Assembly (NCBI RefSeq): GCF_003018235.1
Contig: NZ_CP027437.1
Origin: Escherichia coli
Lineage (GTDB): Bacteria > Pseudomonadota > Gammaproteobacteria > Enterobacterales > Enterobacteriaceae
DNA: 64,000 bases
Strand: one strand, 5' to 3'
Part shown: positions 2,159 to 60,870 of the stretch, piece by piece
Position numbering within the stretch: the stretch's first letter is position 1
How the letters are laid out: every line of letters begins with the position of its first letter
Notes under the pieces: model-generated
Databases searched by the model: none
What the model was told of the DNA's origin: nothing
The model's input: the letters and a program-made list of their open reading frames with translations, nothing else
Program-made: the position numbers and the translations under genes

Positions 2159-3115
2159 TCAGGGAGCTAGTTGCGTGGTATAGTTGGCAGCGACCCAACG
2201 ATAACCCTTGCTGTTGCTTTTAACATGCCCCAGGCCAGGGAATGAGATATGGGCAGCTGCCACCCAGTAACCACCCTGAGCCGCATGTTTTAATACTCGC
2301 TCACGGGTTTTTACCGCTTGCTGTTGATCCACATCGAAATGTATCGCCACGTGAGGATCCGGCATCTGCACTGCTTTGGCATGAATAATATCACCCCACA
2401 ACACTAGCGTCTGGCCTTCACTCTCCACTGTGTACATCACGCTTCCAGGTGTATGGCCGGCCGTTGAGGTGGCCGTAATGTCTGCAAATACCGTTGCCGG
2501 TGCGATAAAGGTTTTCAGCTGACCTGCGTTGATCACTGGGCGGATGGTCTGCTCCGATTCGACAAAGGTGTGCTTCTGACTCTCTTCTACTTTCGAGGCA
2601 TTCGCCGGATTAAGCCAGAAATCCGCATCTTTCTGCTCAACGAATACCTGGGCGTTAGGGAAAGCTGGTTTGCCCTGACGGGAGATGCCACCAGAGTGGT
2701 CGGCATGAATATGCGTCAGCAGCACGGCATCAATGGTTTCAGCCGGATAGCCAGCAGCTGCCAGGTTCTCAAGCAGTTGGCCTCCATTGTTGCCAAACAG
2801 ATCGCCCGCACCGGCATCAATCAACACGCGTTGCTGACCATTATCAATAACAAATGCATTGATTGAAGTCTCCGTATGGGGTGTCAGAGAATCCTTTGCC
2901 AGTTGCTGGCGCAGTTTATCGGCAGGAATGTGGGTGAGTAATTTATCTAGCGGAATTGTCACCGTGCCGTCGGAGACGGCGGTAATACGTAGTTTGCCCA
3001 ATATCATGCGGTAATAGCCCGGTGCTTGTGTATCAGGAGGGGGCACAGGTATAGGCGTTGCTAACGCATTTACGGAGAGTACCAGTGAGGTCACCAGAGT
3101 CAGCAAAAGTTTCAT
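2159..3115 (-). CDS. Secreted metallo-beta-lactamase-fold hydrolase (unknown substrate)
   Basis: 318-aa ORF with N-terminal signal peptide (MKLLLTLVTSLVLSVNALA) and HxHxDH motif (THIHADHSGG); not part of the K-12 gene order at this position. Confidence 0.75.
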   Translation of the reverse strand: MKLLLTLVTSLVLSVNALATPIPVPPPDTQAPGYYRMILGKLRITAVSDGTVTIPLDKLLTHIPADKLRQQLAKDSLTPHTETSINAFVIDNGQQRVLIDAGAGDLFGNNGGQLLENLAAAGYPAETIDAVLLTHIHADHSGGISRQGKPAFPNAQVFVEQKDADFWLNPANASKVEESQKHTFVESEQTIRPVINAGQLKTFIAPATVFADITATSTAGHTPGSVMYTVESEGQTLVLWGDIIHAKAVQMPDPHVAIHFDVDQQQAVKTRERVLKHAAQGGYWVAAAHISFPGLGHVKSNSKGYRWVAANYTTQLAP

Positions 3116-3196
3116 TCTATCCTCGATAAGTTCTGTTATTACAGTACGGGCACCAGTATCCTTTTGCGGATAACATCATTCAAATTGATTAATATA

Positions 3197-4132
3197 ATGA
3201 ACTCTATCAGAGAAAATGATTTAAACCGGGTCGACCTCAACCTGCTAATCGTGTTCCTGGTGCTACATCGAGAGGGGGAGCGTTTCACGTGCAGCCAACA
3301 AGTTACACTTGGGGCAGCCAGCAGTCAGTGGCGCGCTGGCACGGCTGAGAGAAATGTTTAACGACCCGTTATTTGTGCGCACGGCAAAGGGGATGGCACC
3401 GACACCACGTGCACAAGATCTGGTTACGGCACTACTGCCGGTGATGGATCAAATGCAGCAGGTGATTTTTCAAAGGCCAGTTTTTACCCCAGAACAGGAT
3501 CAGCATACGTTTCGCCTGGGGATGAGTGACTGGGTCGAACGCTGGCTGATGCCTGGAATGATGGCAGATATAGCCCAAATGGCACCCGGGATTCGCTTAC
3601 AAGTCACGGCATCCGATCCTTTCCAGGATGGCGAAAAAGTGCAACAGGATAAGGTGGACGTAGCAATCTCCGTCGTGGAGCAGGTGCCCGCCGGAGTGGA
3701 ACGAGAAGTGATCACTCAAATGGGTTTTTGTACGATGTGGCATCCGCTCCAGTTATCTATCACTTCACCGTTAACCCTTGATGTATATACTGAAACCGAC
3801 CATCTTTTGGTCTCTTATCGCGGTGCAAGCAGTAGCTCTATCGATCTGATTTTGGCTGACTGCGGGCGTGGGAAGTGCGTTACGTCACGCCAAATTTCTC
3901 ATCGTTACCGTTGATGTTGAGACAGATACCGGCTTTAGCGACCGTACCGCAGGGGCTGGCAGAAGGTTGGGTAGCCGATTATGGGTTGCAATTTGCCGAT
4001 GTCCCACTCGAGGTTCCTGCTTTTACGCTCTCTCTACTCTGGAATAAGCGGCGTAATAATGATGAGGCGCTGCGCTGGTTACTAGAGAAATTACGTGCAC
4101 GAATGCAGGGCTGGGAGATGTTTTCAGAATGA
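3197..4132 (+). pseudogene. LysR-family transcriptional regulator disrupted by two frameshifts
   Basis: Three consecutive ORFs (3164-3361, 3309-3914, 3875-4132) in frames 2/0/2 together encode one LysR protein (HTH ...SVSRAANKLHLGQPAVSGALARLREMF, then substrate-binding domain); +1 shift in G5 run at 3274-3278, -1 shift near 3860-3875. Confidence 0.7.
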
Positions 4133-4189
4133 GTTTGAAAACGTAACAATGTGAACAGAAAATAAGGGCTTTCTAAATTAAATAATTCC

Positions 4190-4329
4190 TGTTGAATATC
4201 ATCGTTAGCGACAACATCATCCACGACTACCAGCAGATTTGCACCGATGGTGGATGTTCAGGTCACGCCAACCTGGCCATGAACCAGAAGGTTATCAATA
4301 CGGGTTAAGAGAATATTGAGTAATGTCAT
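4190..4329 (-). pseudogene. agaB: Remnant of PTS EIIB (mannose family, agaB-like) with premature TGA at codon 24
   Basis: ATG at 4327-4329 with AGGAG RBS; MTLLNILLTRIDNLLVHGQVGVT*TSTIGANLLVVVDDVVANDDIQQ; conserved RID..L(I/V)HGQV EIIB motif; in-frame TGA at 4258-4260; similarity ends around 4190, before the convergent LysR pseudogene. Confidence 0.6.
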
Positions 4330-4383
4330 AGTCTTATCTCCTGTTATCCTTGTCGCCTTTCATTTTTCGTTCTTTTGGCGGCA

Positions 4384-4413
4384 ATAAAAAAGGCAGATAA
4401 TTAATTATCTGCC
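4384..4413 (-). terminator. Rho-independent terminator downstream of the C-S lyase gene
   Basis: Perfect palindrome GGCAGATAATTAATTATCTGCC (4392-4413) followed on the minus strand by a U-run (A-run 4384-4391 on plus). Confidence 0.5.
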
Positions 4414-4420
4414 CTGTGGT

Positions 4421-5593
4421 TTATGCGATTTTTTGCATCCTTTCTAATGCTTGTTCAAGCCAGTATCTTTGGGTGCCGAAGTTTAAACGTAAGTAGTTTT
4501 CACCGTTTTGCACATAATGGCTGCCATCTTCAATAATGACTCCAGCGTTGCGGGCAAAATGATTGACCCATTCGGTCGCGGAGCGTCCACTTTCACTGAC
4601 ATCAATCCATGCCAGATATGACGATTCTGGTGTCATCATTTTCCATTCAGGAAAATGCGTCTTGAGGGCATCATTAAGCCAGTGGGAGTTATTGCGTAAA
4701 TAGATATTTAATGCATCCAGCCACGGTCTTGCATGCTGATAAGCCAGTGTAATTCCCCAAACGCCAAAAATATTCGGCGAAGTGATTGAGTTCATTTCCA
4801 GTCTCTGGCGAAAACGCTGCCTCAATCCTTTATTCGGAATGACTGAGTAAGATGTTTTCAGTCCCCCTAGGTTAAAGGCTTTATTTGGTGATGTTAGCAG
4901 GACCAGATTATCGTGATCGGCACATCCGGTAGCCAGGCAACTGACAAACTCGCCTTCCAGCAGGTGCTCGGCATGGACTTCATCCACGACCAGAATGACG
5001 CCGTAACGTTTACATAAGTCCGAAACCTGGCGAATCTCATCTGCCGTCCAGATTCGCCCGGAAGGGTTATGTGGAGAGCAGAAAAACCATAGTTTAGGTT
5101 TATGAAGTTTAAGCTGATCTTCAACCAGCGAAAAATCCAGTTGATAACGGTTATCCGCAATGCTTAACGGATTTGCCAGCACTTTAACCCCCTGGCGCTC
5201 TGTTGCCATGGCAAAAGGGTCATAGACTGGCGTATTCATCATGACGCTATCGCCCGGCTGGCAGAACGCCTGAACCATATAGTGCAGCGTTGAGACAGTA
5301 CCATAGGTTAGGGTGATCCAATTCTGCTCGATACTTACGTGGTGACGATCGCGCTGGAAGCCTATCACGGCCTCATAAAACTCATTAAAGGCGTATGTGT
5401 AGCCGAAAGTTCCGTGCTCAACAATCCGTTGAAAACCGTCAATTACCGCTGGTGGCGAAGTAAAATCCATATCAGCGATCCAAAGAGGGATAAAATCTTC
5501 TGCAACCGCACCGAAGCGTGAGCAGACAAACTGATGATCCCATTTGCGGCACTTGTCGCTTTTACGCTCGATAATTCTATCGAAATCGAACAT
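4421..5593 (-). CDS. PLP-dependent aminotransferase class I/II, MalY/PatB-type C-S lyase (cystathionine beta-lyase-like)
   Basis: 390-aa ORF, AGGAG RBS; N-terminus MFDFDRIIERKSDKCRKWD and overall pattern resemble E. coli MalY; 12 nt downstream of the PTS gene (operon). Confidence 0.85.
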   Translation of the reverse strand: MFDFDRIIERKSDKCRKWDHQFVCSRFGAVAEDFIPLWIADMDFTSPPAVIDGFQRIVEHGTFGYTYAFNEFYEAVIGFQRDRHHVSIEQNWITLTYGTVSTLHYMVQAFCQPGDSVMMNTPVYDPFAMATERQGVKVLANPLSIADNRYQLDFSLVEDQLKLHKPKLWFFCSPHNPSGRIWTADEIRQVSDLCKRYGVILVVDEVHAEHLLEGEFVSCLATGCADHDNLVLLTSPNKAFNLGGLKTSYSVIPNKGLRQRFRQRLEMNSITSPNIFGVWGITLAYQHARPWLDALNIYLRNNSHWLNDALKTHFPEWKMMTPESSYLAWIDVSESGRSATEWVNHFARNAGVIIEDGSHYVQNGENYLRLNFGTQRYWLEQALERMQKIA

Positions 5594-9520: not shown

Positions 9521-9560
9521 ATTAAAGGATGGCGTGATGACGTTGCTATGTTCACCGATT

Positions 9561-9614
9561 GCCGGATGCGGCGTACCGTAGGTCAAAGAAGACGCGTCAG
9601 CGTCGCATCCGATA
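9561..9614. repeat. REP (repetitive extragenic palindromic) element pair
   Basis: GCCGGATGCGGCG ... CGTCGCATCCGATA inverted units between agaA stop and agaS promoter. Confidence 0.5.
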
Positions 9615-20861: not shown

Positions 20862-21752
20862 ATGACTATGAAAGTTGGTTTTATTGGCCTGGGGATTATG
20901 GGTAAACCAATGAGTAAAAACCTTCTGAAAGCAGGTTACTCGCTGGTGGTTGCTGACCGTAACCCAGAAGCTATTGCTGACGTGATTGCTGCAGGTGCAG
21001 AAACAGCCTCTACGGCTAAAGCGATCGCTGAACAGTGCGACGTCATCATAACCATGCTGCCAAACTCCCCTCATGTGAAAGAGGTGGCGCTGGGTGAGAA
21101 TGGCATTATTGAAGGCGCGAAGCCAGGTACGGTATTGATCGATATGAGTTCTATCGCACCGCTGGCAAGCCGTGAAATCAGCGAAGCTCTGAAAGCGAAA
21201 GGCATTGATATGCTGGACGCCCCGGTGAGCGGCGGTGAACCGAAAGCCATCGACGGTACGCTGTCAGTGATGGTGGGCGGCGACAAGGCTATTTTCGACA
21301 AATACTATGATTTGATGAAAGCGATGGCGGGTTCCGTGGTGCATACCGGGGAAATTGGTGCAGGTAACGTCACCAAACTGGCGAATCAGGTCATTGTGGC
21401 GCTGAATATTGCCGCGATGTCAGAAGCGTTAACGCTGGCAACTAAAGCGGGCGTTAACCCGGACCTGGTTTATCAGGCAATTCGCGGTGGGCTGGCGGGC
21501 AGTACCGTGCTGGATGCCAAAGCGCCGATGGTGATGGACCGCAACTTCAAGCCGGGCTTCCGCATTGATCTGCATATTAAGGATCTGGCGAATGCGCTGG
21601 ATACTTCTCACGGCGTCGGCGCGCAACTGCCGCTCACAGCTGCGGTTATGGAGATGATGCAGGCACTGCGTGCAGATGGTTTAGGAACGGCGGATCATAG
21701 CGCCCTGGCTTGCTACTACGAAAAACTGGCGAAAGTCGAAGTTACTCGCTAA
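20862..21752 (+). CDS. garR: Tartronate semialdehyde reductase GarR
   Basis: NAD-binding GxGxxG (GFIGLGIMG); three in-frame ATGs (20853, 20862, 20868), 20862 chosen. Confidence 0.85.
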   Translation: MTMKVGFIGLGIMGKPMSKNLLKAGYSLVVADRNPEAIADVIAAGAETASTAKAIAEQCDVIITMLPNSPHVKEVALGENGIIEGAKPGTVLIDMSSIAPLASREISEALKAKGIDMLDAPVSGGEPKAIDGTLSVMVGGDKAIFDKYYDLMKAMAGSVVHTGEIGAGNVTKLANQVIVALNIAAMSEALTLATKAGVNPDLVYQAIRGGLAGSTVLDAKAPMVMDRNFKPGFRIDLHIKDLANALDTSHGVGAQLPLTAAVMEMMQALRADGLGTADHSALACYYEKLAKVEVTR

Positions 21753-21848
21753 TGACGTCGTGCCCGGATGGCGTATTGCAATCCGGGCCTGGAATCCAGG
21801 CCGAATAAGAGAAACGCCCTCCGGCGTCATGTGGTAACAGGCATAGGT

Positions 21849-22994
21849 ATGAAAATCGTAATCGCCCCAGACTCTTATAAAGAAAGTTTATCTGCCAGCG
21901 AGGTTGCGCAGGCGATAGAAAAAGGATTTCGGGAAATTTTTCCTGATGCACAGTACGTTTCTGTTCCGGTTGCCGACGGTGGCGAAGGAACGGTGGAAGC
22001 GATGATTGCAGCCACCCAGGGTTCCGAACGTCACGCCTGGGTTACAGGGCCGCTGGGCGAGAAAGTGGATGCCAGTTGGGGGATCTCCGGCGATGGCAAA
22101 ACCGCGTTTATTGAAATGGCGGCGGCCAGTGGGCTGGAGCTGGTACCTGCGGAAAAACGCGATCCACTCGTGACCACTTCACGCGGCACAGGCGAGTTAA
22201 TCCTGCAGGCGCTGGAGAGCGGTGCAACAAACATTATTATCGGCATTGGCGGCAGCGCTACAAATGATGGCGGCGCAGGCATGGTACAGGCGCTGGGGGC
22301 GAAATTATGCGACGCCAACGGCAATGAAATTGGTTTTGGCGGCGGTAGTCTTAATACTCTGAATGATATTGATATTTCCGGCCTCGATCCGCGCTTAAAA
22401 GATTGCGTCATTCGCGTCGCTTGTGATGTCACCAATCCGCTGGTGGGTGATAACGGCGCATCGCGCATCTTTGGCCCACAAAAGGGAGCCAGTGAAGCGA
22501 TGATTGTCGAGCTGGACAATAACCTCTCTCACTATGCCGATGTCATTAAAAAAGCGCTGCATGTTGATGTGAAAGATGTCCCCGGCGCAGGAGCTGCGGG
22601 CGGTATGGGCGCGGCGCTGATGGCGTTTCTTGGTGCAGAACTGAAAAGTGGTATTGAAATAGTCACTACGGCGCTGAATCTGGAGGAACATATTCACGAT
22701 TGTACGCTGGTGATCACCGGTGAAGGGCGTATTGACAGCCAGAGTATTCACGGCAAGGTTCCGATTGGCGTCGCAAACGTGGCGAAAAAGTACCATAAAC
22801 CGGTGATTGGCATTGCGGGTAGCCTGACCAATGATGTTGGCGTTGTACATCAGCATGGCATTGATGCGGTCTTCAGCGTATTGACCAGCATTGGTACGTT
22901 GGACGAAGCATTCCGCGGGGCTTATGACAATATTTACCGTGCTTCACGTAATATCGCCGCGACACTGGCGATTGGAATGCGCAACGCGGGGTGA
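21849..22994 (+). CDS. garK: Glycerate 2-kinase GarK
   Basis: Start at MKIVIAPDSYKESLSA (381 aa); track ORF has a 27-codon upstream extension. Confidence 0.85.
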   Translation: MKIVIAPDSYKESLSASEVAQAIEKGFREIFPDAQYVSVPVADGGEGTVEAMIAATQGSERHAWVTGPLGEKVDASWGISGDGKTAFIEMAAASGLELVPAEKRDPLVTTSRGTGELILQALESGATNIIIGIGGSATNDGGAGMVQALGAKLCDANGNEIGFGGGSLNTLNDIDISGLDPRLKDCVIRVACDVTNPLVGDNGASRIFGPQKGASEAMIVELDNNLSHYADVIKKALHVDVKDVPGAGAAGGMGAALMAFLGAELKSGIEIVTTALNLEEHIHDCTLVITGEGRIDSQSIHGKVPIGVANVAKKYHKPVIGIAGSLTNDVGVVHQHGIDAVFSVLTSIGTLDEAFRGAYDNIYRASRNIAATLAIGMRNAG

Positions 22995-23018
22995 CAAGGG
23001 CGCGCAAACCCTCTATAC
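22990..23018 (+). promoter_or_regulatory. rnpB promoter
   Basis: -35 GTGACA (22990-22995), 17-bp spacer, -10 TATACT (23013-23018), 7 nt upstream of RNA 5' end. Confidence 0.6.
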
Positions 23019-23025
23019 TGCGCGC

Positions 23026-23402
<377 letters not shown>

Positions 23403-23412
23403 TGTTTTACGT

Positions 23413-37771: not shown

Positions 37772-37790
37772 TCGCCAGGTTTTGGGTATC

Positions 37791-37824
37791 GTGCCGGATA
37801 AGGCGTTTACGCCGCATCCGGCAT
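37791..37824. repeat. REP element
   Basis: GTGCCGGATAAGGCGTTTACGCCGCATCCGGCAT, canonical REP palindrome. Confidence 0.55.
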
Positions 37825-37830
37825 CTGTCT

Positions 37831-40869: not shown

Positions 40870-40975
40870 AAAATCGCCAGATGCGCTACGCTTATCTGGC
40901 CTACGCGGCATTGTAACATATTGAATATAAACGTTTTGTAGGTTGGAGAAGACGTTCACGCCGCATCCGACATAA
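40870..40975. repeat. REP-like palindromic units between yqjG and yhaH
   Basis: CGCCAGATGCGCTACGCTTATCTGGCCTACG and GTTCACGCCGCATCCGAC units. Confidence 0.4.
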
Positions 40976-58529: not shown

Positions 58530-58620
58530 CTGCCAGATAAGGCGTAAACGCCTTATCTGGCATACGTTCAGCACGTTACCCCCAGGTCGGATAAGACGCG
58601 GCAAGCATCGCATCCGGCAC
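58530..58620. repeat. REP/BIME cluster between convergent rlmG and fadH
   Basis: TGCCAGATAAGGCGTAAACGCCTTATCTGGCA and GTCGGATAAGACGCGGCAAGCATCGCATCCGGCAC units fill the 117-bp gap. Confidence 0.5.
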
Positions 58621-60679: not shown

Positions 60680-60780
60680 TTATGTGGTCGGATGAGTTCT
60701 AATTTAGCCGTCGCCAGAGAAAAGGGAAAAGGGGAGTGCGGGGTTTGTGATGGGATTCAAAAAGAATACGCCCGGTGGTA

Positions 60781-60870
<90 letters not shown>

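Follow-up and report, generated by a model that had tools for sequence, protein, structure and literature searches.

The spacer of 96 nt that parts garR from garK in Escherichia coli is very probably the relic of a pair of REP palindromes, as judged from comparison with the spacers of related genera. The best explanation of the whole is a fixed, degenerate BIME/REPIN relic that acts as a stem-loop within the mRNA of the gar operon, and this explanation is held with somewhat better than even confidence. By orthology, the spacer appears to be BIME-derived and not a canonical REP. As a degenerate member of the REP/BIME kind, it is a rather unremarkable element, though its history is of some interest. 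No description of the garR-garK spacer was found in the literature on garPLRK, garK or garR.

The spacer and its inverted repeats

All coordinates refer to the window, which is the whole stretch of 64,000 nucleotides that was analysed. Gene coordinates were taken from the RefSeq annotation of E300010, a strain with 100% identity, which places garR at 20862-21752, garK at 21849-22994 and rnpB at 23027-23403. The original prediction had described a 96-bp gap between garR and garK inside the gar operon. The length was confirmed, with the garR stop codon TAA (21750-21752, + strand) and the garK ATG (21849-21851, + strand) as the bounds of the gap, and the placement is borne out by the garP-garL-garR-garK-rnpB transcription unit, a single unit in which rnpB is insulated by its own promoter. 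The identity of 100% to E300010 holds for a stretch of 496 nt around the spacer, and this stretch is present in 5,425 of the 5,426 complete E. coli genomes. The search for a sigma-70-like site, as an internal garK promoter would have, found none between 21400 and 22200 of the window.

The annotated start codon of garK is well conserved, with ATGAAAATCGT being kept in all 80 loci of the comparison described in the next section. The likely core of its Shine-Dalgarno sequence is AGG (21839-21841, + strand), which lies 7 nt before the ATG in an invariant AACAGGC; the AGGC columns are invariant in all 24 spacers of the architecture called type B below and are common to type A too. The longest open reading frame of garK begins farther upstream, at an ATG at 21768 that lies 27 codons upstream, in frame and inside the first palindrome (REP1). 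This longer coding reading was rejected, since a 1-nt deletion in E. albertii breaks the frame and the ATG at 21849 is conserved in 80 of 80 loci. The stretch 21768-21848 of the window is an annotation trap for the garK start.

Two inverted repeats had been predicted in the spacer, CCCGGAT/ATCCGGG and a pair of arms flanking it, and a repeat finder recovered both at the same positions. The first is part of an 11-nt inverted repeat, GCCCGGATGGC / GCAATCCGGGC (21762-21772 / 21778-21788), which is 91% complementary. The outer repeat consists of the 5' arm ATGACGTCG (21752-21760, + strand) and the 3' arm CGGCGTCAT (21822-21830, + strand); it is 89% complementary, with nine of nine positions paired when G-U is allowed. 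Its first base is the last A of the garR stop codon, and its 3' arm overlaps the 3' arm of the second palindrome (REP2). A third repeat, absent from the original prediction, is a perfect 8-nt palindrome, GGCCTGGA/TCCAGGCC, at 21786-21793 / 21795-21802.

Two REP-like units can be laid out on the + strand of the spacer. The REP1-like palindrome TGCCCGGATGGCGTATTGCAATCCGGGCCTGG (21761-21792) is z1-like and in the iREP orientation. Its hairpin with 11-nt arms (21762-72 / 21778-88) has a predicted energy of -18.0 kcal/mol on its own and is the first strong hairpin of the spacer, starting 9 nt downstream of the garR stop (G21762, + strand). The foot of REP1 reads CTGG in E. coli in place of the ancestral CTAC. 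After a 3-nt linker, AAT (21793-21795, + strand, from the repeat finder), follows the REP2-like unit CCAGGCCGAATAAGAGAAACGCCCTCCGGCG (21796-21826, + strand), which is in the REP orientation and resembles a truncated y unit. Its tag, ancestrally GTAG, is now CCAG, and its own palindrome has decayed in Escherichia (in E. coli, GGAT to GAAT and ATCC to CTCC), leaving a self-hairpin of only -6.7 kcal/mol. The tails of the two REPs pair across the linker as a central hairpin, GGCCTGG-AAT-CCAGGCC (21786-21802, + strand; -13.7 kcal/mol). A small and nearly invariant hairpin, ACGCC-CTCC-GGCGT (21814-21827, + strand; -7.0 kcal/mol), is part of the RNAalifold consensus.

On the antisense strand, the hairpin GACGCC-GGAG-GGCGTT at 21813-21828, followed by TCTCTTATTC, scores as terminator-like, a by-product of the y-REP-like sequence. 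We know of no antisense transcript at 21813-21828.

Orthologous spacers and REP identity

The garR-garK spacers were taken from 80 loci with a GarK ortholog in species-representative genomes. It was found that two architectures occupy the same garR-garK site, namely a hairpin with a U-tract (type A) and a structure resembling a REP pair (type B). A stable hairpin of one form or another is present at this site in 80 of 80 species. Type A was found in 45 of them, including Klebsiella, the Citrobacter freundii group, Leclercia, Atlantibacter, Buttiauxella, Kosakonia and others. It consists of a GC-rich hairpin of 7-9 bp (-11 to -25 kcal/mol) that begins 4-8 nt past the garR stop, with a U-rich tract behind it. 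The stems vary by genus, e.g., GGGCGCG/CGCGCCC, GGGCACC/GGTGCCC and GGGCGCA/TGCGCCC. Type A scores as terminator-like on the + strand (orthologs L065 and L052) and is an ordinary terminator or attenuator within the operon. The spacer of E. coli resembles such a terminator or attenuator in its site, 4-9 nt past the garR stop, in its GC-rich hairpin and in the garK ribosome-binding region, which is the same. However, no U-tract follows any of its + strand hairpins, and no intrinsic terminator was found on the + strand between 21400 and 22200 of the window, whereas the type-A orthologs do have the features of one.

A third variant was observed among the type-A spacers. These spacers are 103-131 nt long and have an extra, inserted hairpin (e.g., CTTCAGGCCGCAGTGGGCCTGAAG) that lies past the terminator-like hairpin and before the garK ribosome-binding region. 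The variant occurs at L035, L037, L044, L053, L054 and L058 (Kosakonia and a MAG), at L020, L038, L043 and L049 (Phytobacter and a Kosakonia sp.) and at L041 (a MAG).

The E. coli spacer aligns without large gaps to 23 orthologous spacers of 95-101 nt. Type-B spacers are about 95-97 nt long. The type-B alignment (n = 24) covers Escherichia, Salmonella arizonae, C. amalonaticus, Pseudocitrobacter, Lelliottia, Kluyvera, Trabulsiella, Huaxiibacter and some Enterobacter, and has a mean column identity of 81%. In all 24 spacers, the distance from the garR stop to the stem is a constant 9 nt, without indels. The spacer in Pseudocitrobacter, Lelliottia, the Citrobacter amalonaticus group and others is a REP pair of the BIME/REPIN-like kind: a z1-like REP that ends in CTAC, a 3-nt linker and an inverted, truncated y-like REP that starts with GTAGGCCGGATAAG. 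In Pseudocitrobacter, Lelliottia and a Citrobacter MAG (L012), the pair reads GCCCGGTGGCGCTTxGCTTACCGGGCCTAC, 3 nt and GTAGGCCGGATAAGTGAAACGCCATCCGGC, and the type-B spacer of Pseudocitrobacter can be written as TGCCCGGTGGCGCTTAGCTTACCGGGCCTAC-ATT-GTAGGCCGGATAAGTGAAACGCCATCCGGCG. At one Pseudocitrobacter locus (L009), the pair makes up an inverted repeat with arms of 31 nt, 77% complementary and 1-3 nt apart, which is composed of two palindromes with a 7-bp foot each. The second REP of the orthologs, GTAGGCCGGATAAGTGAAACGCCATCCGGCG, contains an exact 14-nt match to the y REP (GTAGGCCGGATAAG) and has arms of 7 bp.

Compared with the E. coli z1/y REP consensus, the orthologs reach scores of 28-30 (30 for the first palindrome against z1), with a shuffle p ≤ 0.003. 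This match to the z1 and y consensus and the CTAC...GTAG of the orthologs are further likenesses to BIMEs and REPINs. About half of the 24 orthologs have the CTAC/GTAG pair (e.g., Pseudocitrobacter, Lelliottia and Kluyvera), with A-U and C-G at alignment columns 57/68 and 58/67 in 11 of the 24. The REP1 type is a genuine dispersed extragenic repeat. With a 33-nt query, it was found at 472 places in 266 plasmid records of Klebsiella, Citrobacter, Enterobacter and Salmonella; among the matches listed, none lies under an annotated gene and the highest number per record is 19. A regular expression for the REP1 type found no further copies in the flanks of about 9 kb of the 80 loci.

The two forms of the type-B spacer are bridged by L012, the Citrobacter MAG, which combines REP1 arms of the E. 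coli type with a canonical REP2. Several Enterobacter species have spacers of 56-76 nt with REP1 only, or with REP1 and a fragment of REP2, as a result of partial deletions. At the Pseudocitrobacter locus L009, the REP pair lies between two identical direct copies of the 8-bp sequence CGTTGTGC (3908-3915 and 3976-3983 of that locus). This repeat may be a target duplication or due to chance; the same bases form the G-U-rich outer stem. A mosaic locus was observed in Escherichia sp. MOD1-EC7003 (L007, about 3800-4800), where a tract from the end of garR through the spacer to about nt 800 of garK has an identity of 94-100% to Pseudocitrobacter, and the sequence on either side is like that of E. 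coli (91-98%). By this recombination tract, the canonical REP pair was swapped into the locus.

Two readings of the spacer had also been proposed, an element for the processing or stabilisation of RNA and a REP-like unit that modulates garK expression relative to the genes upstream, and together they are partly supported. The REP-like reading stands by comparison, the orthologous spacers being clear inverted REP pairs, but the E. coli copy itself fails the consensus test and is without GTAG/CTAC. The best local score of the E. coli spacer against y, z1 and z2 was 19, which ranks 119th among 3198 windows of the 64-kb window and gives a shuffle p of about 0.09, so that the similarity is not significant. 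As positive controls, the canonical REPs near 9521, 37789, 40876, 58532 and 60779 score 38-57. A strict REP pattern search across the window gave no match, and a looser regular expression and consensus scans were then used. The canonical REP/BIME copies in the window lie at about 9521-9600, 37789-37825, 40876-40960, 58532-58618 and 60779-60865 and are of the y, z1 and z2 types; some of them carry CCTGG tails instead of CCTAC.

A BIME is defined as two REPs in inverse orientation with a GTAG/CTAC tag at each foot, and GTAG (complement CTAC) at the foot of the palindrome is needed for the binding of TnpA_REP (PMC3333891). The gar spacer is like a BIME or REPIN in being extragenic (between the garR stop and the garK start, inside the transcription unit) and in having two imperfect inverted palindromes, tail to tail, with a short linker, that can be folded into one long hairpin. 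REP1 is an imperfect palindrome of 30-40 nt, as REPs are; REP2 is one in the orthologs only. The inverted pair is seen in the arms of L009, the minimum free energy (MFE) structure of E. coli is the corresponding long hairpin, and the alignment provides the positional homology between them. The spacer is unlike a BIME or REPIN in that the E. coli copy has neither both tags nor the second palindrome, shows no significant similarity to the consensus and is single-copy. REPs are dispersed at high copy number, whereas a BLAST search of 5,425 E. coli genomes, which at this scale would let paralogous matches below ~22 nt escape, found a single site for this element in each genome. BIMEs also vary in tandem number and linker or have a long L linker. 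The tandem number of the gar spacer is invariant between strains, its length is a constant 96 nt in 5,424 of 5,425 genomes, and it is more conserved than the flanking synonymous sites. Its 3-nt linker fits neither the long L linker of BIME-1 nor the other linker types checked.

In E. coli, CTAC...GTAG became CTGG...CCAG by a double change that leaves the pairing of the central hairpin intact, with A-U becoming G-C in one column pair and C-G becoming G-C in the next. Since the tags and the second palindrome have decayed in Escherichia, the element is probably no longer a substrate of the REP transposase. The K-12 MG1655 record has no repeat features across NC_000913.3 3266000-3326000 despite the canonical REPs there, and its silence on the spacer is therefore uninformative.

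RNA folding and sequence constraint

It was confirmed that the repeats and structure of the spacer go beyond chance. The core of 83 nt folds with an MFE of -37.7 kcal/mol, compared with -24.7 ± 3.6 kcal/mol for dinucleotide shuffles (z = -3.63), and none of the 200 shuffles was as stable; for a 116-nt context, z is -2.44. In the MFE structure, the 5' arm of REP1 is paired with the 3' arm of REP2 to give one long hairpin around the central GGCCUGG/CCAGGCC hairpin. This fold reaches -38.5 to -41.6 kcal/mol and contains about 23 bp, broken up by internal loops. The original prediction had drawn the repeats as nested, with an outer stem around the CCCGGAT hairpin. The arms of this drawing exist, but the fold is only sub-optimal at -35.9 kcal/mol, i.e., 2.6-5.7 kcal/mol worse than the MFE, and the ensemble probability of the outer stem is only 0.05 in a 113-nt context that takes in the garK start region. 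A search of Rfam 15 over the spacer gave a best score of 16.5 bits against a gathering threshold of 42.5 (E = 4.5), from an unrelated eukaryotic family.

The MFE of every type-B ortholog lies between -34 and -47 kcal/mol. All candidate helices are 88-95% paired across the 24 orthologs, with frequent compensatory change in the central hairpin only. In this hairpin, 89% of the cells pair, and compensatory changes of AU to GC and back (11 versus 8 sequences) and of CG to GC and back are seen. The REP1 helix pairs in 90% of cells, with three compensatory pairs, and the REP2 helix likewise in 90% across the alignment. The outer stem pairs in 88% of cells, many of them as G-U. Since it is rich in G-U in most genera, it forms in the sense-strand RNA only. 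In Escherichia and a few other lineages, three substitutions turn G-U pairs of the outer stem into Watson-Crick pairs. The predicted dominant fold differs between species, being one long hairpin in some and two separate hairpins in others, and the central hairpin is weakened in E. albertii; no single conserved fold thus explains the constraint on the spacer.

This constraint is strong within Escherichia. Compared with the window sequence, the spacers of E. albertii, E. whittamii and two divergent lineages labelled E. coli differ at 2-7 of 96 positions, an identity of 93-98%. The four-fold degenerate sites of garR/garK are only 59-81% identical in the Escherichia comparisons (Fisher p from 3e-5 to 7e-10), and over the 300 nt next to the spacer on either side, the identity at third codon positions is 66-90% (p from 1e-6 to 5e-4). 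In the four species comparisons, the spacer evolves 3-6 times slower than the adjacent synonymous or third positions. The difference between 93-98% identity in the spacer and 66-90% at adjacent third positions shows that the spacer is under purifying selection. The spacer is at least as conserved as the garD-garP promoter region, and far better conserved than the rnpB-yhaC intergenic region, which carries canonical REPs and is only 59-71% identical or unalignable. Within the species, 5,420 of 5,425 genomes have at least 99% identity over the spacer, and the flanks typically have 98.4% identity to the strain of the window. As for the neighbouring genes, rnpB starts 32 nt past the garK stop (region 22995-23403) and is 99% identical across Escherichia species, compared with 59-64% for the four-fold sites of garK. 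The third positions of the first 300 nt of garK are notably better conserved than those of the remainder of the gene.

Possible roles in gar expression

The proposed mechanism takes the relic to be two tail-to-tail REP palindromes, a z1-like iREP and a truncated y-like REP with a linker of 3 nt, placed directly 3' of garR where other genera carry a hairpin like that of an intrinsic terminator. In the garPLRK-rnpB mRNA, the element would fold into very stable stem-loops starting 9 nt past the garR stop. These stem-loops would act as intra-operon punctuation that blocks 3'→5' exonucleases and may also attenuate transcription. As a result, the garPLR segment would be stabilised and the output of garK reduced relative to the upstream genes. 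This mechanism, in which garPLR is stabilised and garK lowered, is put forward tentatively by analogy, with slightly less than even confidence. An effect on garK expression is plausible because the same site has a terminator-like hairpin in 45 of 80 other species. Since no U-tract follows any + strand hairpin in E. coli, any termination there would need Rho; otherwise the element would act post-transcriptionally.

The analogy comes from known REPs. According to PMC6061677 and the work cited in it, REP stem-loops define mRNA 3' ends and protect them against PNPase and RNase II, BIMEs can attenuate transcription, and the intercistronic REP of malE-malF is a demonstrated mRNA stabiliser (Newbury et al. 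1987, cited therein). Together with BIMEs and REPINs, the malE-malF stabiliser is the closest relative of the gar element, and the two are alike in that stem-loops of the REP type lie between two cistrons of one operon, directly past the upstream gene. The same protection of the upstream mRNA from 3' exonucleases, with expression skewed to the upstream genes, would be expected. The gar element differs in that its function is deduced, its sequence is degenerate and it is deeply conserved at its locus. Against the role of a barrier, it can be argued that conservation of nearly every base exceeds what a generic block to exonucleases needs.

An alternative is control at the level of translation. 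As the stem-loops start 9 nt past the garR stop, the terminating ribosome must unwind them; it could stall at the stem and lower GarR, or it could unmask the garK start, which is predicted to be paired, and so couple the translation of the two genes. Liang, Rudd and Deutscher are said to have reported in Mol Cell in 2015 that REPs within 15 nt of a stop codon stall terminating ribosomes. The gar stem, at 9 nt past the stop, lies within that distance and is like such stop-proximal REPs, although the gar element is not a canonical REP. The stop-to-stem distance, constant in the 24 type-B spacers and 4-8 nt in type A, is consistent with this alternative, and a constraint on the whole spacer would fit several overlapping pairings. 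In a 111-nt fold of E. coli, moreover, 21846-21852 (GGUAUGA) pairs with 21758-21764, masking the garK AUG (unpaired probability ~0.01). However, this helix is not conserved outside Escherichia, where other genera have ACUAUGA or GAUAUGA and L003 has a disrupting U→C, and it was not recovered by RNAalifold. Control at the level of translation is plausible but weakly supported, and is considered unlikely. Equally unlikely is that a REP pair which inserted past garR was domesticated in the Escherichia lineage and is now kept, base by base, as a dedicated cis-regulatory RNA. It would have lost the tags that make it mobile and strengthened a new outer stem through the three changes from G-U to Watson-Crick pairs, and a switch between alternative folds would link termination at garR to the translation or mRNA fate of garK.

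The spacer could also be a neutral fossil, i.e., a dead REP pair retained because its deletion brings no advantage. The loss of GTAG/CTAC and the decay of the REP2 palindrome would fit, as would the partial deletions of Enterobacter that leave spacers of 56-76 nt with REP1 only, the IS insertion tolerated by one E. coli strain and the replacement of the element by recombination in one Escherichia lineage. A fossil is nevertheless improbable, given a spacer that evolves 3-6 times slower than adjacent synonymous or third positions and far slower than the REP-bearing region downstream of rnpB, and a hairpin kept in some form in all 80 species. Still less probable is a site for an endonuclease, RNase III acting on the long hairpin or RNase E beside it, that would split garPLR from the garK-rnpB mRNA. 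The ~23 bp of the hairpin and the end of the polycistronic unit in a processed RNA, rnpB, speak for such a site, but the helix is interrupted, its conformation differs between species, there is no match to an Rfam family, and the 7-9-bp terminator-type hairpin with the same placement in type A is not an RNase III substrate. A role at the DNA level is the least probable of all. BIMEs bind gyrase, IHF and Pol I (PMC3333891), and a BIME-derived element might be a binding site for one of these or a live substrate of the REP-associated transposase. However, the GTAG for TnpA_REP binding is absent, the 3-nt linker leaves no room for an IHF-binding L motif, the copy number is constant across 5,424 genomes, unlike that of active BIMEs, and many conserved pairs are G-U, which are workable only in sense-strand RNA.

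Read as the relic of a REP pair, the garR-garK locus offers a natural series of REP/BIME ageing that comprises an ancestral terminator-like hairpin, a canonical REP pair, partial deletions and a tag-less relic under purifying selection. The locus is of value mainly for illustrating how REPs age and may be exapted, and its practical impact is modest. Should the relic be functional, it would explain how the output of GarK is set apart from that of GarP, GarL and GarR, and annotation of REPs by consensus would miss constrained derivatives that shape expression ratios within operons. If the reading as a domesticated element is true, a selfish palindromic repeat would have replaced an intrinsic terminator and been exapted as a locus-specific regulator.

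The IS insertion in strain CAVP773 was considered as a natural test of REP recognition. The inserted element, ISEc35, is not the REP-loop-specific IS1397, and the case is uninformative in this respect. In this strain, one of the 5,426 E. coli genomes, the IS5-like ISEc35 (L084, about 2951-4003) lies inside the 3' arm of REP1 and parts garR from garK; the insertion point corresponds to 21781-21789 of the window and is marked by a 9-bp duplication, ATCCGGGCC.
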